DNA from: Halarcobacter sp.
GTDB lineage: Bacteria > Campylobacterota > Campylobacteria > Campylobacterales > Arcobacteraceae
Reading direction: 5' to 3'
Length of the DNA: 64,000 bases
NCBI GenBank assembly: GCA_963676565.1
Contig: OY781089.1
Coordinates: forward strand, 1,664,001 to 1,728,000
Position numbers and translations under genes: made by a program. Positions 26,659 through 49,168 of this stretch are shown piece by piece. Numbering within the stretch: position 1 is the stretch's first letter; each line of letters starts with the position of its first letter. A model generated the notes under the pieces. That model was given only the letters and a program-made list of their open reading frames with translations, was not told where the DNA came from and did not search any database.

Positions 26659-28488
26659 TTAATCCTTAAGTGTATTAAAAAATTCTTGTAGAAGAATAGC
26701 ATCTTTTTCGTTTAGAACATCTTTTAATTCATCTTTACTTGCATTTCTTATATTTTCAAAAGATCCAAAATATAAAAGAAGTTTTTTAACCTTTGCCTCT
26801 CCAATTCCTTTGATTTGAAGAAGTGAAATTTTGCTATCCTCTTTTCTTTTTTGTTTCTTGTGAAATGATATAGCAAATCTGTGGGCTTCATCCCTAAGTC
26901 TTTGTATAAATTGTAGTCTTTTGTCTGTTGGAAGAAGTTCAAGTTTTTCTATTTCACCATTGTTTTCAAAAAATACAATATCTTTTGCACTACCTTTTGC
27001 TCTATGGGCTTTAAAATCAAGTTTTTCTTTTGCAATTGCACAAATATCAAGATTAACCCCACAAGAATTTCTAATATCAATAGCAAGCTTAAGAAGTGTT
27101 TCTCCACCATCAATAACCCACATATCAGGAGCAGGGTTTTTTTCAAAACTTTCAACTCTTCTCATTAGAGTTTCTCTCATTTGAGCATATTCATCTTTTG
27201 CTTCAAGATTATAGTGTCTAAAATCAGACTTTACAAACTTTTCTTCCCAAGTAACCATCGCCCCAACTGTTGCTTGTCCCATCATATGGGAGTTATCAAA
27301 GCACTCAAATCTATAAGGTGTTTTTTCTAAGTTAAAAAGTTCTTTTATCTCATCATAAACTGATTTTGATGTTGTGCCACTTAGCCTTAAAAGTTCATTT
27401 GCATTGTTAAGTCCAACTTGAACAATCTCTTTTTTCTTTCCTCTTTTTGGGTTAGTTATTGGGATATTTTTTGAAAATTTATTTTGAATAAACTCTTCAA
27501 TCTCCTGTTTTTCTTCTATATCGTGGGCAACTATAATCTCTTTTGGTAAAAGTGGAATCTCATTGTCATAATAGTTTACTATGGCTCTTTCATAGGCTTC
27601 ATTTATATCAATTGTAATATCTTCTTTATTTGGTTTGATATAATCATGGTTTGATGATGCAAGTTTTCCATCTCTAAAAAACATTCTAACTAAGGCTGCT
27701 TTATTGTCTATAATACTTATTGCAAATAGGTCTATATCTTCATTTGTAGCTAAATCCATACCTGTTTGGATTTGAGATTTTTTGATTGTTGTGATTCTAT
27801 CTCGAAGTTTCATCGCTTCTTCAAATCTAAACTCAGAACTATACTCTTCCATCTTTGATGTTAGTTTTGAAATTAGCCTATTTTTATTGTAAATATATCC
27901 TAATGATTCATCAATAAGTTTTGCATAATCCTCTTTTGAAATCTTACCCTCACATGGAGCATGACATTTTTTTATTTGGTAAAAAAGGCAGGCTTCTTTA
28001 CCTTTGATACAAGATTTCTTTTGAACCAATGGCACTATTTCATAAATAGAATCAAGCATATCTCTAGCCCCAGTGGAGTAGGGACCAAAGTATTTTACAT
28101 TTTTATCTTTTAATACTCTTCTTGTAATCTCAAGTCTTGGGAAGTCTTCATTTAGATTTATATAAATATATGGATAGGTTTTATCATCCCTAAGTAATAT
28201 ATTGTATTTTGGTTTTAATTGTTTGATAAGAGAATTTTCTAAAATTAAAGCATCGTGCTCATTTGGTACAACAATCCACTCTAAAGATTCAACCTCACTA
28301 ATCATCTTATAAATTCTAGGGCTTAATTTATCAGATGGTAGAAGTTTTGGGGTAAATTTAAAGTATGACTTTACACGGTTTTTTAAAACCTTTGCTTTTC
28401 CTATATAAAGTAGTTTTCCATTTCTATCGAAGTATTGATATACTCCGGCATCTTTGGGTAGTTGTTTTAGTTTCTCTTCTAAATTCAT
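26659..28488 (-). CDS. uvrC: Excinuclease ABC subunit C
   Basis: GIY-YIG GVYQY..YIGKAK.L.NRV.SYF, ECFDNSH, IDGG, RDEAHRFA, HhH. Confidence 0.98.
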   Translation of the reverse strand: MNLEEKLKQLPKDAGVYQYFDRNGKLLYIGKAKVLKNRVKSYFKFTPKLLPSDKLSPRIYKMISEVESLEWIVVPNEHDALILENSLIKQLKPKYNILLRDDKTYPYIYINLNEDFPRLEITRRVLKDKNVKYFGPYSTGARDMLDSIYEIVPLVQKKSCIKGKEACLFYQIKKCHAPCEGKISKEDYAKLIDESLGYIYNKNRLISKLTSKMEEYSSEFRFEEAMKLRDRITTIKKSQIQTGMDLATNEDIDLFAISIIDNKAALVRMFFRDGKLASSNHDYIKPNKEDITIDINEAYERAIVNYYDNEIPLLPKEIIVAHDIEEKQEIEEFIQNKFSKNIPITNPKRGKKKEIVQVGLNNANELLRLSGTTSKSVYDEIKELFNLEKTPYRFECFDNSHMMGQATVGAMVTWEEKFVKSDFRHYNLEAKDEYAQMRETLMRRVESFEKNPAPDMWVIDGGETLLKLAIDIRNSCGVNLDICAIAKEKLDFKAHRAKGSAKDIVFFENNGEIEKLELLPTDKRLQFIQRLRDEAHRFAISFHKKQKRKEDSKISLLQIKGIGEAKVKKLLLYFGSFENIRNASKDELKDVLNEKDAILLQEFFNTLKD

Positions 28489-28503: not shown

Positions 28504-28686
28504 AAAATATCTTAACCTCAAGGCAAATGTTAGAGTTAGTCTTTTAAGAGATGTTTTACTAAAATATATTTATTTATTATTTTAAACAAAGTAGAATATG
28601 AAATTATCTCAAACAAAATCTTAATATTATTTTCAGCTGACCTCTTATATTAAGATAATATTTTGAATTAATAATTGGAAAGAAAA

Positions 28687-29352
28687 ATGAAAAACGAAAC
28701 AAGTGAAAGAGACTATGATAATAACCCTATTGTGATTGAAGATAGAATGCCAGAAATTGGTTTTTGGTTTTTTATGTCTTTTGCAATTATACCATTATGT
28801 GTTGTCTTATTTATTATGCAACAAACAGGAATAAAAATTGACTGGACACATGTACTTATTTCAGCGAGTATTATTTATATACCTGGTTTTTTTTCTTTGG
28901 CAGTAAATATGCCTAAGGATAAGAAAATAAAATTCTATGAAAATAAAATTGTTAGAGAATGGGATGGAAAATTATTAGAACTCAATTTTAATGAAGAATT
29001 AGATTTTCAGATAGGTTATATTGATTTTTATAATAAGAGACAAGAAGCTAATGATTTTGTAAAGCTATTGTTACCAATTTACTACCCCATTGTAGCATTT
29101 ATTCAACACCCTTATTTATTAATCATAAAAACTATATATAAATCAATTAATAAATTTAACAACAAAAAGAAATTTGATACTTTGTATATTTTTAATAAAA
29201 CAGAAATGATTGCAGTATTTATTGAAAGTGATTTAATTGAGAAAGATTTAAAAAAATATTTAAGTCTTAAGTCAATTGATATTACTTCACTTAAAACTTT
29301 TTACACAACATCATATGTATTTGATGGAATGAATAACTTTATAAACAAATGA
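28687..29352 (+). CDS. Hypothetical membrane protein
   Basis: ERDYDNNPIVIED N-terminus, then 2-3 hydrophobic segments; ATG 28687 preferred over TTG 28675. Confidence 0.75.
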   Translation: MKNETSERDYDNNPIVIEDRMPEIGFWFFMSFAIIPLCVVLFIMQQTGIKIDWTHVLISASIIYIPGFFSLAVNMPKDKKIKFYENKIVREWDGKLLELNFNEELDFQIGYIDFYNKRQEANDFVKLLLPIYYPIVAFIQHPYLLIIKTIYKSINKFNNKKKFDTLYIFNKTEMIAVFIESDLIEKDLKKYLSLKSIDITSLKTFYTTSYVFDGMNNFINK

Positions 29353-29419
29353 GAACGATAATGTCTCCTTTCTCTGAATTAAAAAATAAAAGAGACATGC
29401 ATCTTTTCAATTTTTGTTA

Positions 29420-29497
29420 ATGGAAATGTCAAACAAAAAAATAGTGCCCAAGTATTGTGAACAATGTGGTGAGTTAATAAAAGGAGAAAATAAATGA
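29420..29497 (+). pseudogene. Probable 3-prime remnant of a gene ending in a CxxC half zinc ribbon
   Basis: MEMSNKKIVPKYCEQCGELIKGENK*; the stop overlaps the next ATG (ATGA). Confidence 0.4.
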
Positions 29498-30306
29498 AAT
29501 GGCTAATAAATATTTTAATAATAAGTTGCTTTTTACAAGCAAATGAACTTTCAGACACAATAACAAATAATACAAAAGTAGATATGTTGTGTGTAGAAAG
29601 TTATCCAAGTGTATATAAAAAAGAAGGTCAAAAAAATGTGAAAGTTTTTGATAGTGAAAAATATATCAATACTCTAAAACCAAATAAGAGTATAAAGAAA
29701 AAAAGAGAAGGTACCCTTAACTGCTACAATGAGTTTAAAGATATAACTTCATCAAAAGATAATAGAATTTTTCAAACAAATGAAAGAACCATTGAAAGTC
29801 ATTTAATAAGTCATAATAAATACAATCTAACACTATATGAAAATAAAACTCGAGATTTTGTTGAAAAAAACTTTGGCATAGCTCAAAGGTGTGCACCTTA
29901 TAAAGATGGTAAATATTGTAATTATGGATATGGACTAGATATTTTATTTGATACACACAATAAAGTTAAAACATTATATCTCTATGAAAATACAGTTCAT
30001 AGAGGAGAACTTCCTTTTGAACCTGAATCAATTTTAAAGCTTTATTCAAATTCTAAACCCCTTGGTCTTTGGGTAGTTAAAGACTATAAAAAACTATTCT
30101 CAAAAAAACCAACACTTAAAACAAATAGTTTAATTATGTGGGAAAATCTTTCAAAACATATAAAAAGAGTAACTATGATACCTAAGAATGGCTATTACCC
30201 ATTAAGCTATACAGTAAAAGATGGACATAACCTATATAAAAATGGCTATGAAGATTCAGCTAAACCAATGGATTATGTACAGGCAATTCAAGTTGAGTAT
30301 AGGTAA
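29494..30306 (+). CDS. Hypothetical exported protein
   Basis: AAGGAG SD, signal peptide, several Cys; no recognised motif. Confidence 0.75.
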   Translation: MKWLINILIISCFLQANELSDTITNNTKVDMLCVESYPSVYKKEGQKNVKVFDSEKYINTLKPNKSIKKKREGTLNCYNEFKDITSSKDNRIFQTNERTIESHLISHNKYNLTLYENKTRDFVEKNFGIAQRCAPYKDGKYCNYGYGLDILFDTHNKVKTLYLYENTVHRGELPFEPESILKLYSNSKPLGLWVVKDYKKLFSKKPTLKTNSLIMWENLSKHIKRVTMIPKNGYYPLSYTVKDGHNLYKNGYEDSAKPMDYVQAIQVEYR

Positions 30307-30315
30307 GCAAAGAAG

Positions 30316-30858
30316 ATGGGTGTAAAAATCACTGAAAAAGATGGAAAGAAATATATAGGTGAGGAAGAAATCCTTTTTGAATATGAATTAGGTGTAAATA
30401 TGTTTAAAATAACTATGATTATATTTGGACCATTATTATTTTTTATTTATGCAAAAAGTCAAAATTTTGATGTAGGAATTTTTTATTTTATAATTTTACT
30501 TATATTTTTTATATTTCTATGTGTATTTTTGTTAAGAAATATACAAAATATATATAGAAAAAAAGTTTTTATCACACAAAAACATATTATTACTGCTTCT
30601 GGTTCAAAATTTAAAAAAGAGAATATCTATATATATTATTCTCTTTTTTCTGATTCTGCAGGGTTATTAAGTCATACAGAGTTATTTTTTTATAATGGAA
30701 AAAAGTTTGATTTTATTTTTTTTGTAAAAGTAGATGAAAACGATAAAAATTTCAAAACTTTAATGCAGACTTTATATGATATTTCAAAAAATGAGAATAT
30801 TTTAATTGAAAATATGAATTCACAAACAATAAGACAAAAACTAATTAAAGGAGACTAA
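30316..30858 (+). CDS. Hypothetical membrane protein (2 TM + soluble C-terminus)
   Basis: Two hydrophobic segments at about aa 27-72; lies in the same cassette run. Confidence 0.7.
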   Translation: MGVKITEKDGKKYIGEEEILFEYELGVNMFKITMIIFGPLLFFIYAKSQNFDVGIFYFIILLIFFIFLCVFLLRNIQNIYRKKVFITQKHIITASGSKFKKENIYIYYSLFSDSAGLLSHTELFFYNGKKFDFIFFVKVDENDKNFKTLMQTLYDISKNENILIENMNSQTIRQKLIKGD

Positions 30859-30859
30859 G

Positions 30860-30991
30860 ATGGTAACAGATGTAAGTAATTATTTAACAAATATTGATGG
30901 TACATATTTTGATGCAGTATCAAATATATTAAATAAGACTGATAATAAAACTGCTCTAGTTACACCCCAGAGGATGAATCTCCACTTTTGA
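30860..30991 (+). pseudogene. 5-prime stub of a gene interrupted by the inverted-repeat element
   Basis: AAGGAG SD and ATG right after the previous stop; MVTDVSNYLTNIDGTYFDAVSNILNKTDNKTALV reads into the left repeat and stops. Confidence 0.55.
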
Positions 30992-31193
30992 GATTAAAGA
31001 ATATAGAAAATCAATAAATTAAAGTTTCTAGCTGAGAAGTTTTAATTTGTAGATAAAAATAAAGATAAAAAGATGCCCACAAGATTAAGAGTAGATTTTG
31101 AAGGATACCATCATATAATAAATAGAGGAGTAAATAGATGTATCAATATAAAATAAAAGATAAAAAAATGGAGATTCATCTACTGGGGGTGTA
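30961..31193. mobile_element. Miniature inverted-repeat element (REPIN/MITE-like) carrying a RAYT transposase stub
   Basis: Left TACACCCCAGAGGATGAATCTCCA (30961-84) vs reverse complement of right end TACACCCCCAGTAGATGAATCTCCA (31169-93). Confidence 0.7.
31073..31156 (+). pseudogene. N-terminal stub of a REP-associated tyrosine (Y1/HUH) transposase
   Basis: MPTRLRVDFEGYHHIINRGVNRCINIK* matches the MPRxxR..YH(H)IxxRGxxR start of RAYT/IS200-like transposases. Confidence 0.75.
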
Positions 31194-31299
31194 GTTGTCA
31201 TGCAAGAAAACTTTTCTCAAAAAACACTATAGCAATTTAGGGATAGTTTTATCTTTTCAAATACTCTATAATTTCCATAAAAACTTTGAAAGAGAACAT

Positions 31300-32148
31300 A
31301 TGAAAAAAGAATCAGAACAAACTCAATTTCTTCAAAAAAATCACTATCTACAAAGTGTTTATAAAGTCATTTTTTATATTGAGCAAAACTATGGCTATGA
31401 ACTAAGTCTGGAAGAGCTCTCATCTGTTGCGGGTTTTTCAAAGTACCATTTTCATAGGATATTTAAATCTATCACCGGTGAAAATTTAAATGATTATATC
31501 AGAAGAGTGAGGCTTTCAAGTACAACTTTAAAACTTAAAACCAATCAAAAAATCACACAGATTGCTATGCATAGTGGGTACGAAACCAATGCCTCTTTTT
31601 CAAGAGCTTTTAAAAAGCATTTTGGGATGACGCCAACTGAGTTTTCAAAAAATGCAAAAACAAAAAAAGGAAACAATATGTTAGAACCTGAAATTATTGA
31701 GATAAAAGATATTGAACTTTTTTATGTCAGAGCAACTGGAGAATACCGCCAATCCGTAGAGGAATCATGGAATAAGATTATTGAGTATGCTTATAAGAAC
31801 AATCTCTTTGGAAAAATCAAAGCAAGATATGGCATCGCACATGATAATCCAAATGTCATAGAGAGTGAGAAGATTCGCTATGACGCCTGCATTGAAACGG
31901 ATGATATAGGGCTTGAACCTGATGGTGATGTAACATCAAAAATCATAACTGGCGGTACGTATGCAAAATTTTTGCATGTCGGCAGTTATGAAGATTTGGA
32001 TAAGGCACATGAGGCACTATCAAATTGGATTATAGACAGTGGTATTGAGCTTAGAAATGCGCCTGTTTTTCATAAGTATTTGGACTTAGACCCAAGGGAT
32101 ATGAAACCTGAGAATTTGCAAACTGAGATTTATGTGCCTGTTTATTAA
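31300..32148 (+). CDS. AraC-family regulator with C-terminal GyrI-like effector domain
   Basis: FSKYHFHRIFK, IAMHSGYET.ASFSRAFKK.FG.TP, HDNP..RYDACI, GGTYA.F.H.GSY; ATG 31300. Confidence 0.92.
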   Translation: MKKESEQTQFLQKNHYLQSVYKVIFYIEQNYGYELSLEELSSVAGFSKYHFHRIFKSITGENLNDYIRRVRLSSTTLKLKTNQKITQIAMHSGYETNASFSRAFKKHFGMTPTEFSKNAKTKKGNNMLEPEIIEIKDIELFYVRATGEYRQSVEESWNKIIEYAYKNNLFGKIKARYGIAHDNPNVIESEKIRYDACIETDDIGLEPDGDVTSKIITGGTYAKFLHVGSYEDLDKAHEALSNWIIDSGIELRNAPVFHKYLDLDPRDMKPENLQTEIYVPVY

Positions 32149-32159
32149 GTGAGCAGATA

Positions 32160-33038
32160 ATGCAAAAAAAGAAAAATTCGCATACTGCATCTGTTCAAAA
32201 TGTTTCCGATACTGCTTTTTGGGTAGCTTCTTTTAGAGCCGCTGAGAGCAAAAGAGAAGATGCGCTGTTTCAAGACCCTCTTGCTAAGATATTAGTTGCC
32301 AATCACGGCGAAAAAATCTCTCATTCTATGCGCTCAGTGGCAAAATCTGCTTCATGGTCTGTGGTGATGCGTACACGATTAATAGATGAGATTATTTTAC
32401 GTTATATTAAACAAGGATATACAACACTCATCAATCTTGGAGCGGGTTTAGATACCAGAGCGTATCGACTTGAATTGCCTGATGATTTTCACTGGATAGA
32501 GATAGACTTTACTGAAGTTTTGGAGTTTAAAGAACAAAAGCTTAAAGGACAAAAACCAAAGTGTAAACTTCAACGCATAGCATGTGATCTCTCCAATCAC
32601 GCTCAAAGAAAAGCACTCTTTAAAAAGCTCGACACTAGGATAAGTCCTGCTCTTGTTTTATGTGAGGGGGTAATCATGTATCTTGATGAAGAGGGTGTGG
32701 GTGCTTTGTCAGAAGATATCAAAGAACAATCCAATTTCAAATTATGGATTGTGGATTATTATTCTACTGAGATTTACAAGATATACCAATCACCAAGATT
32801 TAAAAATCTCTTGAGCAACGCTCCTTTTTTGTTTTATCCATCAGATTGGTTTTCTTTTTTTAAAGAGTATGGCTGGATACAAAAAGAAATTTTGTACCTT
32901 TATGACATAGCTAAAGAACATAAGCGTTCTTTTCCTTTGCCATGGTGGGCAGTGCCTATAAAATTTATCCTTGGTGAAAAAAGGATGATGAAAAAGATAA
33001 AAAAATACACCGCCTTTGTTGTATTTGAAAAGGTGTAG
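32160..33038 (+). CDS. SAM-dependent methyltransferase (leucine-carboxyl-methyltransferase-like family)
   Basis: VSDTAFWVA..RA.ES, DPLA, NLGAGLDTRAYRL, WIEID, EGVIMYL. Confidence 0.9.
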   Translation: MQKKKNSHTASVQNVSDTAFWVASFRAAESKREDALFQDPLAKILVANHGEKISHSMRSVAKSASWSVVMRTRLIDEIILRYIKQGYTTLINLGAGLDTRAYRLELPDDFHWIEIDFTEVLEFKEQKLKGQKPKCKLQRIACDLSNHAQRKALFKKLDTRISPALVLCEGVIMYLDEEGVGALSEDIKEQSNFKLWIVDYYSTEIYKIYQSPRFKNLLSNAPFLFYPSDWFSFFKEYGWIQKEILYLYDIAKEHKRSFPLPWWAVPIKFILGEKRMMKKIKKYTAFVVFEKV

Positions 33039-33128
33039 ATGATTACTATCCAACTTATTTATACTGCAATAATGTACTATGTCTAAAAAATTTTAAAATG
33101 TATAATTTACCAAAAAGAAGGGTAAATT

Positions 33129-33713
33129 ATGAATATTGTATTTTTTCTACTATATTGTAGTTTGATGATAATAACACCAGGTCCCACTAATATTATGATT
33201 CTTACAACAGTGCACAATTATGGAGTCAAAAAAGCTTTTGAGTTTTCTGTTTGTGCATTATTTGCTTTTTTTGTATTATTAAGTATATCTGTTATTTTTA
33301 ATTCTATATTGATGAATTATTTGCCAAATATTATAGTTGTTTTACAGATAATTGGAGCTATTTATATGTTGTATTTAGCATATCAAATTTTTAAGATAAA
33401 TAATACTTCAAAAAAAGAAAATCAGTTTTCATCTTTTAAAACAGGTTTTTTTATGCAATTTGTTAATCCAAAACCAGTATTGTTTACATTGACTGTTTTT
33501 CCAAGTTTTATTTTGCCTTATTATACCTCTTTTTGGCATTTGACACTTTTTGTGTTATTGATTACAATTATTGCTTGTGTTGCTTTTTTATCATGGATTT
33601 TATTTGGAAAAGTGCTAAAATCTTTTTGGGATAGATATAATAAGCTAGTAAATAACATAATGGCAATATTTTTAATAATATGTGCTATTGCAATTTCAGG
33701 GATATTTAATTAA
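33129..33713 (+). CDS. LysE/RhtB family exporter
   Basis: ITPGPTN, GAIYMLYLAY, QFVNPK; hydrophobic. Confidence 0.92.
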   Translation: MNIVFFLLYCSLMIITPGPTNIMILTTVHNYGVKKAFEFSVCALFAFFVLLSISVIFNSILMNYLPNIIVVLQIIGAIYMLYLAYQIFKINNTSKKENQFSSFKTGFFMQFVNPKPVLFTLTVFPSFILPYYTSFWHLTLFVLLITIIACVAFLSWILFGKVLKSFWDRYNKLVNNIMAIFLIICAIAISGIFN

Positions 33714-33830
33714 ATGATTTATTATGAATAAAAGATAAAAGAGACATGTAGAATAAAATATTAAATTCAAGCAAGATATAATAAATCAATTAAAACAAAG
33801 GATAAAGGTGGAAACCTGATCCCTATCTAA

Positions 33831-34718
33831 TTATTGATAATTTATATAATAAGGTTTTTCCCAGATTTTTCTACCAAAACTCTCTTCAAAACCTAAAATT
33901 TCTTTTGGGCTCATGATTTTTGTATCAGTTTCATAAAATATTTTAAATCCACTTTTTGCAATATCTTGTTCTTCTTGAGTATAAAGATTATTGTAGATTT
34001 TTATTTTTACAGCAGGGTTTCCATGTCCATCAATATTATAGATTAGATTCACGTTATCAAATTTTTTAACTTCATCTTTTTTTCTTAACATTCTTTGATG
34101 AAACATATGAACTATCAACTCTTTTTTATTTAAATTATTCTCTTCAATATAATCATTTACTAATTTTTGAACTTCATTTAAATCATGGGCAAATATATGA
34201 CCAACATACCTTCCTGGTGGGTATCTTCTATGCTTTGGGATTTTAAATTCTGGATCAAGTGCTAAGTGTACATTATCATACTTAAGATATTTTAATACAA
34301 TTTTTACAGCTTCACTTGGGGTATTTGTTCCCATTTGAAGATCAATAATTACTTTAAACTCTTCCATTTTTGCTCTATTGATAAAATTCATTAAACTTTT
34401 ATGAGATAGTCTTAACATATAATCATTTCTTTTACCTGCATCAGGAGTAGCTAATCCATAGATTATATGAAATGCCATTTGAACTTCAAAGTTATCACCT
34501 AACTCTTTTTCATAAAATGATTTTTTATCATGCATCTTTTTGACTAGTGCATCTAAATTACTTTGACCTAATACACCAAGAGATTTAGTGTTTGGTCTTC
34601 CATAAAAACCTATTAAGATTTTTTCTTTTTCTATAGTTGTTTTTATTGTATTATTTGCAAAAATATTGTCCACAAAAAATAATATAAAAAGTGCTAATAT
34701 TTTTATAATCTTCCCCAT
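33831..34718 (-). CDS. Hypothetical exported protein
   Basis: Signal peptide; FYGRP, IIDLQ, LALDPEF, IDGHG; start may be 34718, 34724 or 34733. Confidence 0.75.
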   Translation of the reverse strand: MGKIIKILALFILFFVDNIFANNTIKTTIEKEKILIGFYGRPNTKSLGVLGQSNLDALVKKMHDKKSFYEKELGDNFEVQMAFHIIYGLATPDAGKRNDYMLRLSHKSLMNFINRAKMEEFKVIIDLQMGTNTPSEAVKIVLKYLKYDNVHLALDPEFKIPKHRRYPPGRYVGHIFAHDLNEVQKLVNDYIEENNLNKKELIVHMFHQRMLRKKDEVKKFDNVNLIYNIDGHGNPAVKIKIYNNLYTQEEQDIAKSGFKIFYETDTKIMSPKEILGFEESFGRKIWEKPYYINYQ

Positions 34719-34910
34719 TATCATTTTCCCCAAAACATTTTAAAGTTGGAAGTATAATCTAATAGAATAAAATCTAATTTAATCAAGATTAATATTCTTG
34801 TTTTTTTGACAGATTTATTAAAATTAAAAAGTATAATACTAATTAATGGATATTACATAATAGCTTTGGTATGATGCAAATCCTTAATCTCTAAATATAT
34901 TAGGATACTA

Positions 34911-35594
34911 TTGAATTTAAAACAAATAAGCATGGCAATTTATGCCACATATCTAACAAATAGTTATGGATTTAAACTAAAAAAAGCAAAAACTTCAAAA
35001 GAAAGAATAAGTCTAAGGGAAGAGTATTCTAAAACACTTTTAAATAAGTTAAATATAAGTGTAGAAGTATTAAACGAAGAGGCAATACCTAAAGAGGGTA
35101 AATATCTTTTAATATCAAATCATAGAAGTATTATCGACCCATTGATTATCGAGTTAGCTTTAGAAAAAAGCGGTATCAATGGTTTTTGGGTTTCAAAAAA
35201 AGAACTATATGACTCTTTTTTCTTTGGCTCATTTGTTAAAAATGCTGGTTCTATTCTTTTAGATAGAGAAGCTTCAAATATGTCATCTTTTTTTAAAGAG
35301 ACTAAAGAGGTTGTAAAAGAAGGTCACTCAATTTATATCTTTCCTGAAGGTACAAGAAACAAAGAAAATACACCACTTAGTTCTTTTAAAGATGGTTCAA
35401 GAATTATTGCTTTAAAAAATAGGCTTGATATCTTACCTGTATATATAAAAACAAATGCAAATGAAGTATTAAAAGAAGCTATAAATAAAAGAACAAAAAA
35501 TTTAAAAATAAAAATCCAAATTGGAGAGATTATCTCTTATAAAGATAAAACACCCCTTGAAGAAAACTATAAAAATCAGTTTTCAATAATTTAA
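34911..35594 (+). CDS. plsC: 1-acyl-sn-glycerol-3-phosphate acyltransferase family (TTG start)
   Basis: NHRSIID (HxxxxD), KKEL, FPEGTR. Confidence 0.88.
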   Translation: MNLKQISMAIYATYLTNSYGFKLKKAKTSKERISLREEYSKTLLNKLNISVEVLNEEAIPKEGKYLLISNHRSIIDPLIIELALEKSGINGFWVSKKELYDSFFFGSFVKNAGSILLDREASNMSSFFKETKEVVKEGHSIYIFPEGTRNKENTPLSSFKDGSRIIALKNRLDILPVYIKTNANEVLKEAINKRTKNLKIKIQIGEIISYKDKTPLEENYKNQFSII

Positions 35595-35668
35595 TTTAAA
35601 AATATCACTTCACACAGAGTAAACATTTATGTGATATATTTCCATTATAAAGTTTTAAAGGATTTATT

Positions 35669-36847
35669 ATGATTGCAGAAATAGTATTTGCTGCAGGGTG
35701 TTTTTGGGGTGTTGAAAAACATTTTGAATCAATTCCTGGAGTAGTTGATGTAAAATCTGGATATGTTGGTGGTAATTATGAAAATCCAACATATAAAAAA
35801 GTATTAAAATATAGAATGTCAAATGATAAAACTATAGTAAACTATACTGAAGGTGTTCTTGTAAAGTTTGATAAAGAAAAGATTGATGCAAAGGCACTTA
35901 TAAAATCTTTTTGGGAAATTCATGATCCAACACAGTTAAACCGTCAAGGTAATGATATTGGAAACAATTATAGAAGTGCAATTTTTTATACAAACGATTA
36001 TCAAAAAGAAACTGCACTTAATACAAAAGTAAAATATCAAAAACTTCTAGAACAGGCTGATTATGGTAAGATAGTTACACAAATACAACCTTTAAAAAAG
36101 TTTTGGGAAGCTGAAAATTATCACCAAGACTATTTAAAAAATAACCCAAATGGCTATTGTCCAAATCATGCTACAGGGGTGAAATTTGAACCTGAAAAGA
36201 TAAGTTATCCTGATTTGATCCCTTTAGGAAATAAAGAGATTATTGTAGTTGAATCAGAAGGTTATTGCCCTTATTGTGAAAAATTTGAAAAAGATGTTTT
36301 ATCCTCTTATAAAGGGACACTTCCTATAAGAAAAGCAGTTTCAAAACAATTGGATAAATTTGAAATAAAAACAAAACTATATGCAACACCAACAATTTTA
36401 TTTATTGAAGATGGAAAAGAGGTATTCTCTCACAAAGGTTACTTAAGTAATAAAGAGTTTTATGAGGTCTTTGGAAAGTTCAAATTAGGTGAGGATACTG
36501 AAAGTTTCAACGTAGCTTTTAACAAAGGCACTGACAATAGGTTTTGTAAACAGTATGAAATTTTTAAAAATACTCCTGATGGAGTCTTTGTAGATAAATT
36601 GTCAGGTGAAATTTTATTTGATACAAAAGATAGATTTAATTCAGGTACTGGATGGTTAAGTTTTTACAAAGCAGTTGATGGTTCAACTATTGAAAAAACT
36701 GATTTAAGTTATGGAATGATTAGAACAGAAGTATTAGCTAAAAAAAGTGGAATTCATTTAGGTCATGTTTTTGATGAGATGGGGCATAGAAGATTTTGTA
36801 TCAATGCAACAGTTTTAGATTTTGTTCCAAGAGATGAGGTGCAATAG
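35669..36847 (+). CDS. msrAB: Methionine sulfoxide reductase fusion MsrA - thioredoxin-like - MsrB
   Basis: AGCFWG, HDPTQLNRQGND, AENYHQDY (MsrA); CPYC..TPT (Trx fold); SGTGWLSF, HLGHVF, RFCIN (MsrB). Confidence 0.92.
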   Translation: MIAEIVFAAGCFWGVEKHFESIPGVVDVKSGYVGGNYENPTYKKVLKYRMSNDKTIVNYTEGVLVKFDKEKIDAKALIKSFWEIHDPTQLNRQGNDIGNNYRSAIFYTNDYQKETALNTKVKYQKLLEQADYGKIVTQIQPLKKFWEAENYHQDYLKNNPNGYCPNHATGVKFEPEKISYPDLIPLGNKEIIVVESEGYCPYCEKFEKDVLSSYKGTLPIRKAVSKQLDKFEIKTKLYATPTILFIEDGKEVFSHKGYLSNKEFYEVFGKFKLGEDTESFNVAFNKGTDNRFCKQYEIFKNTPDGVFVDKLSGEILFDTKDRFNSGTGWLSFYKAVDGSTIEKTDLSYGMIRTEVLAKKSGIHLGHVFDEMGHRRFCINATVLDFVPRDEVQ

Positions 36848-37534
36848 TTGCCTGGACGTTTAGCTATTTTTGATGATAAAAAATTTAAAGAGGACTCAAA
36901 AGATTTAATAAAAAATGATATGGTTGGGGCTTTATTGCCAAAATATAATATAGCTCCAACTTTACCAATACCTACACTTTTAAACAATGGAAACTATTTA
37001 TATAGCCATTTTGGATATCTACCTTCATGGGCAAAAGATAAAAAAAGTATGAATATAAACGCAAGAAGTGAGTCTATCTTTGAAAAACTTACCTTTAGGG
37101 ATTCTTTTCGATATAGACGTTGTATTATCCCAATAAATGGCTTTTTTGAGTGGGAAGTAGAAGATAAACAGAAAACTCCATATTTTGTAAAAGATAGCAA
37201 AAATGATTATTTAGCAATTGCTGGGGTTTGGGATGAGTATTTTGATATTGATTTAAACATGAAAATAGTTACTGTCGCCTTAATTACTTGTGATGCAAAC
37301 GAAAAGTTAGGAAAGATTCATCACCGTATGCCAGTAGTATTAGAAAAAAAAGATTTTTCTAAATGGTTATATAGTGAAAATCTAAAAGAGATTAATTCAC
37401 TTTTTAATATATATCCAAGTGAAAATCTTGACCTTTACGAAGTTTCATCAAATGTAAATAAAGTTTTATTTGATGAACCCTCGTGTATTAAAAGCTTAGA
37501 AAAAGTAGAAATAGGGCAAAAAACTCTATTTTAG
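36848..37534 (+). CDS. SOS response-associated peptidase (SRAP/YedK/HMCES) family, Pro2 variant (TTG start)
   Basis: YNIAPT, PSWAK, INARSE, RRCIIP.NGFFEW, IHHRMPV; GAGGT SD 7 nt before TTG. Confidence 0.9.
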   Translation: MPGRLAIFDDKKFKEDSKDLIKNDMVGALLPKYNIAPTLPIPTLLNNGNYLYSHFGYLPSWAKDKKSMNINARSESIFEKLTFRDSFRYRRCIIPINGFFEWEVEDKQKTPYFVKDSKNDYLAIAGVWDEYFDIDLNMKIVTVALITCDANEKLGKIHHRMPVVLEKKDFSKWLYSENLKEINSLFNIYPSENLDLYEVSSNVNKVLFDEPSCIKSLEKVEIGQKTLF

Positions 37535-38071
37535 TAGTTCTACAATTTTTGCTTCAATCTCTTCAGGAGTGGTTATTGAACCATATCTTTCAACTATTTT
37601 TCCATTTTTATCAATTAGAAATTTTGTAAAATTCCATTTTATAGCTTCTGTCCCTGCAAAACCAGGTGCATTTTCTTTTAAGTAAACATATAGTGGGTCA
37701 GCATTCTCTCCATTTACATCAATTTTTGCAAACATATCAAATTTTACTCCAAAAGTTAGAGTACAAAACTCTTGAATTTGTTTATTTGTTCCTGGTTCTT
37801 GGTTAGCAAATTGATTTGATGGAAAACCTAAAACCATAAACTTTTTGTCTTTGTATTTATCAAAAAGTTTTTCCAATCCTTCATATTGATTTGTAAAACC
37901 ACATTTACTAGCAACATTTACAATAAGTAAAACCTTGTCTTTATACTTAGACAGTGAGATCTCTTTACCTTCTATATCTTTTACTTTAAAGTCATAAATA
38001 CTCATTTCCTTCCCTTTTGCTAATGAAAATGACAAACTTAATACAAGTGCCATTAATATTTTTAATATCAT
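37526..38071 (-). CDS. Glutathione peroxidase family (Cys type) with N-terminal signal peptide
   Basis: NVASKCG, GFPSNQF..QEPG, IKWNFTKFL. Confidence 0.95.
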   Translation of the reverse strand: MILKILMALVLSLSFSLAKGKEMSIYDFKVKDIEGKEISLSKYKDKVLLIVNVASKCGFTNQYEGLEKLFDKYKDKKFMVLGFPSNQFANQEPGTNKQIQEFCTLTFGVKFDMFAKIDVNGENADPLYVYLKENAPGFAGTEAIKWNFTKFLIDKNGKIVERYGSITTPEEIEAKIVELLK

Positions 38072-38138: not shown

Positions 38139-38636
38139 CTAAAAAAAGATATTTTTACCCATGATAACATCATCATGGTCAACAAATCTATTACAATTTA
38201 TGCCCTCTAGTGCTATACAAATATTTTGCCATTGTTTAGAGTGTCCTCCATTTTCATCTGTAAAGTTTCCTTTTACAAACATTAATGCATGGGCATACTC
38301 ATGGGGTAATACATCATTTATCATATATTCAGAACTCTCTTTAAATCTTTTTTTATTTAGATATATTGATATTTGTCCATTATTCGAATAAGTTGCTGCA
38401 CCAAAAAGTTTTGAGGGCATTTTATCGGAGATAATTAAAGGAATCTTTTTATTTATTCCAAATTTTTGATAGCTTAGTTTTTCAAGATAATATTGTTTCT
38501 GTTTAACTTTTTGAACTATTTTTTCATCAAGGGGATTGTTTTTGAAGTTGTAAGTATTAATCCATGAGTAGATTAAAAAAATCGAACCTAAGATTGTAAC
38601 ACCTAAGAAAAAGTAGTTCAATTTTTTTAAAAACAT
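38139..38636 (-). CDS. SprT-like zinc metallopeptidase, membrane-anchored
   Basis: N-terminal TM; HEYAH (HExxH), GGH...WQ. Confidence 0.85.
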   Translation of the reverse strand: MFLKKLNYFFLGVTILGSIFLIYSWINTYNFKNNPLDEKIVQKVKQKQYYLEKLSYQKFGINKKIPLIISDKMPSKLFGAATYSNNGQISIYLNKKRFKESSEYMINDVLPHEYAHALMFVKGNFTDENGGHSKQWQNICIALEGINCNRFVDHDDVIMGKNIFF

Positions 38637-48383: not shown

Positions 48384-49168
48384 TAAATCTCTATTTCAAG
48401 ACCAATTGGACAGTGGTCACTTCCAAATACATCATCTAAAATATAAGCATCTTTTACATAATCTTTTAAATCAGAACTCACATAAAAGTAATCAATTCTC
48501 CAGCCAACATTATTAGCCCTTGCATTTGCTCTATAAGACCACCATGAGTATTTATCTTTTATATCACCATTTATAAGTCTAAAAGTATCAATATATCCAT
48601 GGTCTAAAAATTTTGTAATCCAATCTCTTTCCATTGGTAAAAATCCTGAAGTCTTTTCATTTGCCTTAGGACGTGCAATATCTATTTCAGTGTGAGCAGT
48701 ATTTACATCTCCACAAACAATAATAGATTTTCCCTCTTTTTTAAGATTTTCGCAATGCTCTAAGAATCTATCGTAAAACTCCATTTTATAAACAAGTCTT
48801 TCCTCTTTTGATTGACCATTTGGAAAATATACATTAAAAAAAGCAATATCTTTATTGCCTAAAGTAAAATGAACTTCATTTATTCTTCCTTCATCAAGAA
48901 TATCAACACTTGGACAATTACAAGTAAAGGTAGGTTCTAAGTCTGTGAAAAGTGCTGTTCCACTTCTACCTTTTATAGCAGACTCAGAAGCAAATACTGT
49001 TTTATAATTTTTTTCAAATATTGAATCTGGAATTTGCTCTTTAGAGGATTTTGTTTCTTGAATACCAAGTAAATCAATATTTGCTTCATCAACCCATTTC
49101 AAAGCCTTTTTTTTATCAACTGCTCTAATACCATTTACATTCCACGAGATAAACTTATATCTACTCAT
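48383..49168 (-). CDS. xth: Exodeoxyribonuclease III / AP endonuclease
   Basis: SWNVNGIRA, QETK, GDVNTAH, WWSYR, GWRIDY, SDHCP. Confidence 0.97.
   Translation of the reverse strand: MSRYKFISWNVNGIRAVDKKKALKWVDEANIDLLGIQETKSSKEQIPDSIFEKNYKTVFASESAIKGRSGTALFTDLEPTFTCNCPSVDILDEGRINEVHFTLGNKDIAFFNVYFPNGQSKEERLVYKMEFYDRFLEHCENLKKEGKSIIVCGDVNTAHTEIDIARPKANEKTSGFLPMERDWITKFLDHGYIDTFRLINGDIKDKYSWWSYRANARANNVGWRIDYFYVSSDLKDYVKDAYILDDVFGSDHCPIGLEIEI

Follow-up and report, generated by a model that had tools for sequence, protein, structure and literature searches.

Proteins of the SRAP family, such as Escherichia coli YedK and human HMCES, are reported to crosslink to abasic (AP) sites by forming a Schiff base on the alpha-amine of Cys2, followed by closure of its thiol to a thiazolidine ring (PMC9436759), and Aravind et al. 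2013 described this cysteine as 'absolutely conserved... always the second amino acid' (PMC3765255). In YedK, Glu105 is reported to be required for Schiff-base formation and His160 to contribute to ring opening, and the mutants C2A and C2S lose the crosslink, form a Schiff base that can be trapped with borohydride and cleave AP-DNA (PMC9436759). Enzymes of the Fpg/Nei group, among them the AP beta-lyase Nei2, specific for single-stranded DNA (ssDNA), are reported to use as nucleophile the secondary amine of an N-terminal proline that is exposed by removal of the initiator Met; Nei2 itself is said there to prefer ssDNA (PMC11323726). Here we describe a SRAP gene in which a proline takes the place of the catalytic cysteine. 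It lies in a stretch of 64,000 nucleotides from Halarcobacter sp. (Campylobacterota, Arcobacteraceae; assembly GCA_963676565.1, contig OY781089.1, positions 1,664,001 to 1,728,000), which we call the window and whose first letter is position 1 of the coordinates below. We compare the gene and its product with the systems above.

A SRAP gene with proline at residue 2

The start region of the gene contains the following features:

36836..36840, plus strand: Shine-Dalgarno-like GAGGT, 7 nt 5' of the TTG start and within the last msrAB codons
36848..37534, plus strand: SRAP-family (SRAP/YedK) gene of 228 amino acids with a TTG start, from the open reading frame (ORF) call and PF02586
36851..36853, plus strand: Pro2 codon CCT, replacing the catalytic Cys2 of YedK/HMCES

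The ORF opens TTG CCT GGA CGT (M-P-G-R), with the TTG start codon at 36848-36850, and closes with TAG at 37532-37534. The 7-nt spacer behind GAGGT ends in the stop codon of the preceding gene, msrAB (TAG, 36845-36847); msrAB (35669-36847) and the SRAP gene share a reading frame with this one TAG between them and the TTG immediately next to it. Since the in-frame stop lies directly 5' of the TTG, the protein can have no longer in-frame N-terminus, and no nearby alternative start yields M-C-G-R. The GAGGT and the msrAB-SRAP junction are identical in the two closest relatives (loci L003 and L004). A preliminary description of this DNA had reported the same start layout directly after the msrAB stop, which can be read in the sequence, and had found no M-C-G-R start nearby, which holds given the upstream stop in frame. 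The four SRAP motifs that it named are present as well (YNIAPT at residue 33, INARSE at 70, GFFEW at 98 and IHHRMP at 157). It had placed the gene at 36836 to 37534; the end is correct, but 36836 belongs to the ribosome-binding site and coding begins at 36848. The observation of a SRAP gene with Pro2 is confirmed.

The sequence of the start is found again in an independent DNA run (X3). A single contig of that run spans the whole 2501-nt stretch that takes in the start, with 31 differences that all fall outside 36848-36859. A further DNA run (X2), identical across the stretch, may be the source of the window itself. The genome has one PF02586 match only, and a search of it for a Cys2 paralogue found none. 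We also considered read-through of the single TAG, or a fusion of msrAB and the SRAP gene in their common frame, and rejected it, as relatives have unrelated upstream DNA and start codons of their own.

Family, fold and conserved residues

The product aligns with the Pfam SRAP profile PF02586 over its full length (residues 1-206 cover all 214 profile positions; E 8.4e-54, with 182.8 bits where the cut-off is 27.1), and its sequence matches in the PDB are all SRAP proteins, including BT_1218 (2F20, E 8.5e-27), the HMCES SRAP domain (6.6e-18) and YedK (3.4e-12). AlphaFold2, given an alignment of 51 sequences, produced a model with a mean predicted local distance difference test score (pLDDT) of 93.0 and a predicted template modelling score (pTM) of 0.89. 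All 21 Foldseek matches of the model with E <= 0.001 are SRAP structures. VIA-align superposes it on BT_1218, HMCES and YedK with Z 25.9-28.3 and a root-mean-square deviation of 2.1-2.5 A over 207-215 residues (Z 20.7-28.3 over 15 SRAP entries); among the matches are 6NUA, the covalent YedK crosslink, and 8D2M, the Schiff-base complex of YedK C2A. In these superpositions residue 2 of the model falls on chain residue 2 of both YedK and HMCES, so that Pro2 occupies the place of Cys2. By sequence and fold the protein is a member of the SRAP superfamily, outside the class of Cys2 crosslinkers.

Alignment to the YedK chains gives the equivalents of the residues around the active site:

37058..37060, plus strand: Asn71 codon AAC, equivalent to YedK Asn75, 100% conserved in 60 Pro2 and 139 Cys2 sequences
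37148..37150, plus strand: Glu101 codon GAG, equivalent to YedK Glu105 by alignment and conservation, its role as reported in PMC9436759
37280..37282, plus strand: Leu145 codon, equivalent to YedK Ile147, which is reported to form one wall of the thiazolidine pocket (PMC6821365)
37319..37321, plus strand: His158 codon CAT, equivalent to YedK His160 by alignment and conservation

Across the 60 Pro2 sequences, Pro2, Gly3, Arg4, Asn71, Arg73, Glu75, Glu101, Trp102, Thr147, His158, Arg160 and Pro162 are conserved in 100% and Trp61 in 97%. In the alignment Arg4, Trp61, Arg73, Thr147 and Arg160 correspond to YedK Arg4, Trp67, Arg77, Thr149 and Arg162. YedK is reported to hold the AP-site phosphate with Arg77, Thr149 and Arg162, to stack Trp67 on a base and to touch the DNA with Arg4, Asn75, Trp106 and His160, and the same source describes a hydrophobic pocket for the thiazolidine ring made of Trp103, Ile147, Thr149 and Pro164 (PMC6821365). 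The pocket equivalents here are Phe99, Leu145, Thr147 and Pro162, of which only position 145 differs from the Cys2 majority, being Leu in 95% of the Pro2 clade versus Ile in 86% of the 139 Cys2 sequences. Other residues specific to the Pro2 clade are Leu5, Tyr50, His54, Phe55 and Asn69.

With its DNA-binding residues as the best-conserved part, the protein could be a non-covalent binder of AP sites or ssDNA that acts as sensor, steric shield or recruiter and in which Pro is a tolerated small residue. YedK C2A is reported still to bind ssDNA (dissociation constant 7.9 vs 2.2 uM), with crosslinking at background (PMC6821365). We regard this explanation as unlikely. A binder of this kind would have no need for a proline at exactly the N-terminus, where it is kept through four different codons and down to about 43% identity, nor for the invariant Glu101 and His158, given that YedK E105A and H160A are reported to bind DNA at least as well as the wild type (PMC6821365). 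Nor would it account for the same residue having been reached repeatedly, as described below.

Conservation of Pro2 in the genus and in Arcobacteraceae

The SRAP gene is present in 15 of 24 other genomes of the genus, with 14 intact copies and one broken copy (G005), and in all 15 of them, as in the window, an ATG, TTG or GTG stands directly before the Pro codon. The codon itself is CCT in 11, CCC in 2 and CCA in 2 of the 15 intact rows (window included); CCG occurs in other genera of Arcobacteraceae, and thus all four Pro codons are represented. Within the family a SRAP match is found in 64 of 184 genomes, belonging to 9 of 22 genera. N-termini were read in 47 of the 48 matching genomes from the eight other genera, G140 being excluded as a C-terminal fragment at a contig edge, and 46 of the 47 are M/L/V-P-G-R. 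The lone exception (G155, locus L064, contig G155:C33) is a Cys2 protein of another subfamily (MCGRIDFHD...); no other Cys2 SRAP was found in the family. The ORF of this exception has a hydrophobic, membrane-like tail after about 140 residues and is a truncated or fused gene.

The same picture is obtained from a large protein database, where 117 of the best 120 matches begin with xPGR and the other three are N-terminally truncated calls. Pro is at residue 2 in 60 of the 60 clade sequences compared, and the ratio of nonsynonymous to synonymous substitution rates (dN/dS) is 0.07-0.25 across 11 orthologue pairs. The start codon directly before Pro across relatives, together with the upstream stop in the window, means that Pro is kept at the very N-terminus. 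The preliminary description had asked if MPGR could be a conserved clade trait under purifying selection, and by the N-termini in genus and family and by dN/dS it is one. Close relatives with MCGR or the use of another start had been named as findings that would speak against it; the relatives carry Pro2, which therefore is neither a private mutation nor an error, and another start is excluded by the upstream stop and by the start codons before Pro in the relatives.

It is very improbable, given these results, that the gene is decaying or artefactual, be it through a sequencing error, a mis-called start or an incipient pseudogene. One of the 15 same-genus copies is indeed broken by stops, the presence of the gene in just 64 of the 184 family genomes marks it as dispensable, and RNA contigs (X1) cover none of 36848-37534. 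Against this stand an independent assembly with the same start region, a trait that is clade-wide, the dN/dS values, the invariant catalytic residues and a confident fold prediction. The broken copy (L017/L018, contig G005:C1) contains the stops TGA and TAA and is a pseudogene; its genome is reported to be 81% complete.

Position among the SRAPs of Campylobacterota

A search of 1.84 billion representative proteins gave 20,945 homologues at E <= 0.001. Two of the best 150 of these begin with xPGR (43% and 45% identical), and the rest of the 150 with MCGR, MCAR or VCGR, save 22 that are mostly extended or truncated gene calls. One representative homologue (P0267, with its cluster member P0280) opens M-V-A-R; it may be a further variant without the Cys, or its start may be mis-called.

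SRAP genes are rare in the phylum: 11 of 401 genomes in a phylum sample had a match, and the three full-length copies in other families of this sample are all MCGR. The initial protein query gave no match in 16 genomes from the order's other families, whose Cys2 copies were found by Pfam-based searches. In a Sulfurimonas-type family (f15, the family of G433) SRAP occurs in 18 of 251 genomes, and the 16 readable N-termini divide into nine Cys2 and seven Pro2.

In a maximum-likelihood tree of 112 rows, calculated with alignment columns 1-4 excluded, the 37 Pro2 rows form one clade, which requires one change and has a support of 99 in the Shimodaira-Hasegawa-like approximate likelihood ratio test (SH-aLRT); the nearest neighbours of this clade are Cys2 copies from Campylobacterota. 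A second tree of 118 rows places the Pro2 copies of family f15 and one Sulfurovum copy inside the same clade. None of the sampled Campylobacterota genomes has both types. We infer that Cys changed to Pro most simply once in the Campylobacterota lineage, the Pro2 form taking the place of the canonical one and not being added to it. The trait is not peculiar to Arcobacteraceae: the same clade reaches Sulfurimonas- and Sulfurovum-type genomes, and Pro2 arose again in other phyla.

Recurrence outside Campylobacterota

A scan of one genome per species with a degenerate DNA pattern for M-P-G-R ... [YF]N[IVM]AP listed at least 120 stretches. Among the 120 stretches listed, 40 encode SRAPs beginning with MPGR (hidden Markov model from our own alignment, E <= 1e-5), 15 of them from Campylobacterota and 25 from elsewhere. 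Among the stretches listed, 11 of these 25 belong to Anaerolineales or other Chloroflexota and nine to Alphaproteobacteria or unclassified Pseudomonadota (Dongia, a Rhodospirillaceae bacterium, Methylocapsa, Paenochrobactrum, Rhodobacter, Maritimibacter, Sedimentitalea, Hyphomonas and one unclassified); the remainder are one each from Dadabacteria, Gammaproteobacteria, Algoriphagus and Nitrospinales and one weak partial match from Desulfovibrio.

The 118-row tree mentioned above comprises 39 Pro2 and 79 Cys2 rows (LG+G4, quick search). Parsimony gives eight Cys/Pro changes on it, of which the strongly supported branches force at least three, and a single Pro2 clade is rejected by the approximately unbiased (AU) test, which was run after the tree was seen (delta lnL 187.3, p-AU 0.002). 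On this phylogeny the change from Cys to Pro arose more than once. All nine Pro2 groups keep Arg4, Asn71, Arg73, Glu101, Thr147, His158 and Arg160, with one exception among the 39 rows: the Dongia group has two rows, and one of them carries Ala at 71. Trp61 is replaced in three of the nine groups.

Two pocket positions differ in frequency between the types: among these related rows, position 145 is other than Ile in 32 of 39 Pro2 versus 7 of 79 Cys2 rows, and position 162 (YedK Pro164) is other than Pro in 11 of 39 versus 0 of 79. A convergent rebuilding of the pocket, favoured by the raw counts, was dropped as a statistical claim because the independent pairs are too few, and Trp55-to-Phe was rejected as a convergent change, being confined to Campylobacterota.

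Five of the Pro2 genomes from outside Campylobacterota were searched whole for SRAP copies. Dongia carries a single Pro2 copy beside two Cys2 copies, Maritimibacter and Methylocapsa each have one Cys2 and one Pro2 copy, and Algoriphagus and an Anaerolineales genome have the Pro2 form only. The occurrence of Pro2 beside Cys2 paralogues in three of the five genomes suggests that the coexisting Pro2 form has a distinct role.

Proposed chemistry

A thiazolidine crosslink is chemically impossible without a 1,2-aminothiol, and removal of the initiator Met is expected when the second residue is small, as is Pro. With Pro at residue 2, the crosslink typical of the family cannot form. We propose that the Pro2 SRAP would still bind ssDNA at AP sites, that removal of the initiator Met would expose the N-terminal Pro, and that the secondary amine of this Pro could attack C1' of the ring-opened AP site, with Glu101 and His158 assisting in the manner of YedK Glu105 and His160. 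The product would be an iminium (Schiff-base) intermediate with no thiol to close it. Its likeliest outcome would be beta-elimination, that is, AP-lyase cleavage of ssDNA, as in YedK C2A, Fpg, Nei and Nei2, and the next likeliest a short-lived, reversible covalent hold. The chemical argument of the preliminary description, in which a thiazolidine is impossible and a Schiff-base route is taken, has, by analogy, published support from YedK C2A and C2S (PMC9436759).

Judged by this analogy, covalent chemistry through Pro2 is probable, and strand cleavage as its physiological result is a tentative proposal. The full statement, that the Pro2 SRAP may act as an N-terminal-proline AP lyase on ssDNA and cleave it, is favoured here with similar reserve. 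Extended to all of its occurrences, it would make Pro2 SRAPs a recurrent, convergent class, on the SRAP fold, of AP lyases specific for single strands or of transient binders competent as lyases. The change from Cys to Pro would then have turned a DNA 'shield' into a 'cutter' repeatedly, and the new form would have fully replaced the canonical one in those Arcobacteraceae and those Sulfurimonas- and Sulfurovum-type genomes in which it occurs, while working alongside it in several Alphaproteobacteria. We offer this wider view as a possibility on which we would not yet rely.

Several points weigh against a lyase. The chemistry is argued throughout by analogy, and Nei2 P2C is reported to be inactive as a lyase (PMC11323726), so that N-terminal nucleophiles are not freely swappable between scaffolds. 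For the association of Pro2 with the pocket positions there are only three independent Pro2/Cys2 pairs on well-supported branches, and therefore no significance test is possible; Ile at 145 is moreover kept in four of the nine Pro2 groups. The pattern scan targeted only Pro at residue 2, and a preference for Pro over other replacements does not follow from it. The metatranscriptome contigs (X1) cover pieces of msrB and of the downstream gpx and nothing of the SRAP gene. Cutting AP sites in ssDNA at replication forks would make the very breaks that canonical SRAPs prevent, and the Pro2-bearing genomes of Campylobacterota lack a Cys2 copy that could make up for this. Finally, the rate constants reported for YedK C2A are 0.05 for cleavage and 1.7 for Schiff-base formation (PMC9436759); cleavage being this slow, the intermediate and not the cut could be the functional state.

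Such an intermediate, which in YedK C2A forms far faster than cleavage follows, is what a transient covalent shield would use: a Pro adduct, either the iminium or a ring-closed prolyl glycosylamine, would be held without beta-elimination and would protect the site reversibly, with no stable crosslink that needs removal by a protease. Wild-type SRAP crosslinks are themselves reported to be reversible (PMC9436759), the DNA-anchor residues are all kept, and the lack of any Cys2 copy in Pro2 Campylobacterota fits a protein that is still shielding. We nevertheless consider a shield of this kind improbable, because nothing is known that would suppress beta-elimination from the iminium, and in Fpg, Nei and Nei2 a Pro iminium is reported to drive cleavage (PMC11323726). 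The ring-closed adduct is chemical speculation, and the coexistence of Pro2 and Cys2 forms in three of the five other genomes argues for a different job and not for a gentler version of the same one.

The proposed lyase would act on AP sites. A changed substrate has also to be weighed, with the protein either a bifunctional glycosylase/lyase that, like Nei2, takes damaged bases out of ssDNA by way of its N-terminal Pro, or an enzyme that uses its N-terminal Pro as a general base on something other than an AP site. The genome has no PF01149 (Fpg/Nei) match, a profile that in a control matched 9 of 14 known genomes, and Nei2 is reported to join ssDNA AP-lyase and 5-hydroxyuracil glycosylase activities in a protein with an N-terminal Pro (PMC11323726). 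The clade-specific Leu5, Tyr50, His54, Phe55 and Asn69 lie near the N-terminus and loop region, where they could serve such a change, but they are absent from the other Pro2 lineages. SRAP structures are not known to contain a pocket for a base, most bases are reported to face out of the binding groove (PMC6821365), and the glycosylase step of Nei2 is reported to be independent of its Pro2 (PMC11323726). We consider a changed substrate quite improbable.

Genomic neighbourhood and expression

The genes around the SRAP gene that bear on the comparison are:

35669..36847, plus strand: msrAB, a fusion of MsrA, a thioredoxin-like domain and MsrB (Pfam PMSR, Thioredoxin_2, SelR)
37526..38071, minus strand: glutathione peroxidase gene (gpx), convergent, its end overlapping the SRAP stop by 9 nt
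38139-38636, minus strand: SprT-like metalloprotease-family gene, two genes downstream of SRAP (PF10263, E 2.6e-13)
26659-28488, minus strand: uvrC, separated from the SRAP gene by a block of 8.2 kb
48413-49150, minus strand: Xth-like gene, about 11 kb from the SRAP gene

As the TAG of msrAB abuts the SRAP start, the two genes are probably co-transcribed. A promoter and terminator scan found no promoter-like site directly before 36848 and fewer promoter-like sites than in shuffled sequences, which is compatible with this. The msrAB junction is present only in the window's own genome and in L003 and L004 (three of 15 intact copies). The idea of an oxidation-insensitive SRAP, raised in the preliminary description, leans on the neighbouring msrAB and gpx; this argument is undercut by the confinement of the junction to three genomes, and gpx is local synteny.

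In eukaryotes, SPRTN degrades HMCES crosslinks. The order SRAP, gpx, SprT-like recurs in L011, L014 and L016, and the pairing of SRAP with a SprT-like gene is suggestive, but it is missing elsewhere in the clade and looks like local synteny. The divergent neighbour of SRAP in several relatives (G023, G007, G003, G188, G171) is uvrC, with one ORF between the two genes in G185 and G168; uvrC with alanine racemase behind it, divergent to the Pro2 SRAP, is found in L011, L012, L015/L216, L211 and L215. In the window the 8.2-kb block that separates uvrC from SRAP (28675-36847) contains three ORFs that match no Pfam family and the genes for an AraC/GyrI-like regulator, an LCM methyltransferase, a LysE transporter, an acyltransferase and msrAB, and looks like an insertion.

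Elsewhere the surroundings are different again. In genus g29, aat (Leu/Phe-tRNA protein transferase) immediately precedes the Pro2 SRAP, in the same orientation, in three of three complete genomes (L208 3381-4064, L209 3417-4076, L210 3363-4046), overlapping SRAP as called in two of the three. An enzyme of the N-end rule is an odd neighbour for a protein with an N-terminal active site, and probably a coincidence. One of the three g29 genomes (G142, L209 5111-5896) has an Xth-like Exo_endo_phos gene two genes downstream of the Pro2 SRAP and on the same strand, and the window's own genome has two HhH-GPD genes. Sulfurimonas-type SRAP copies adjoin HycI, deformylase or a RecD-like helicase. Two Cys2 copies stand next to repair-related genes, that of G629 (L071/L218) to a gene for a Y-family polymerase (IMS, E 2e-39) and that of G583 (L075) to an AlkD-like DNA-alkylation-repair gene; no neighbour of either kind was found beside any Pro2 copy examined. 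A functional partner conserved across the Pro2 clade was sought in the neighbourhoods and none holds. We read the neighbours (msrAB, gpx, SprT-like, uvrC, aat and others) as lineage-local synteny.

Significance

No description of a natural SRAP with Pro at residue 2 was found in the full-text literature, supplementary alignments and subscription-only papers aside. Pro2 SRAPs break the rule of the invariant Cys2: a large, natural and selected set of proteins keeps all but the Cys and gains the classic lyase nucleophile. They are a natural experiment on protecting versus cutting abasic sites in ssDNA. The labels 'abasic site processing protein' and 'SOS response-associated peptidase' probably misdescribe them, and they raise the question of how Campylobacterota with only the Pro2 form handle abasic sites at replication forks.

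Comparison with known systems

The closest described systems are YedK and HMCES (PF02586; PDB 6NUA, 6KBS, 6OE7). The Pro2 SRAP has the same full-length domain, with the fold beginning from residue 2 (Z about 26-27), the same set of Asn, Glu and His and the same phosphate anchors for ssDNA, and its presumed catalytic residue likewise comes directly after the initiator Met. It differs in having Pro and not Cys at residue 2 and Leu where YedK has Ile147. The Cys2 SRAPs of Campylobacterota (G433, G629, G600 and others of family f15) share with the Pro2 copies an N-terminal motif, x-G-R-hydrophobic-...-F/Y-D/S-D-...-F/W, but keep Cys2, with Ile at 145 and Trp at 55.

YedK C2A and C2S (8D2M) are likewise SRAP scaffolds without a thiol, and 8D2M is among the best structural matches of the model. 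Those proteins, however, are laboratory mutants that offer a primary amine (Ala or Ser), whereas here the secondary amine of Pro is naturally fixed throughout a clade and repeatedly elsewhere. With Fpg/Nei, and especially with the mycobacterial AP beta-lyase Nei2, the Pro2 SRAP has in common an N-terminal Pro directly after the initiator Met, whose removal is presumed here; in those enzymes this Pro is reported to form the Schiff base at C1' of the AP site (PMC11323726). The fold of Fpg/Nei is unrelated: the Pro2 SRAP protein has no Fapy_DNA_glyco, H2TH or zinc-finger domain, PF02586 being the only one found. The likeness to Fpg/Nei is one of proposed mechanism, by analogy, and not of membership.

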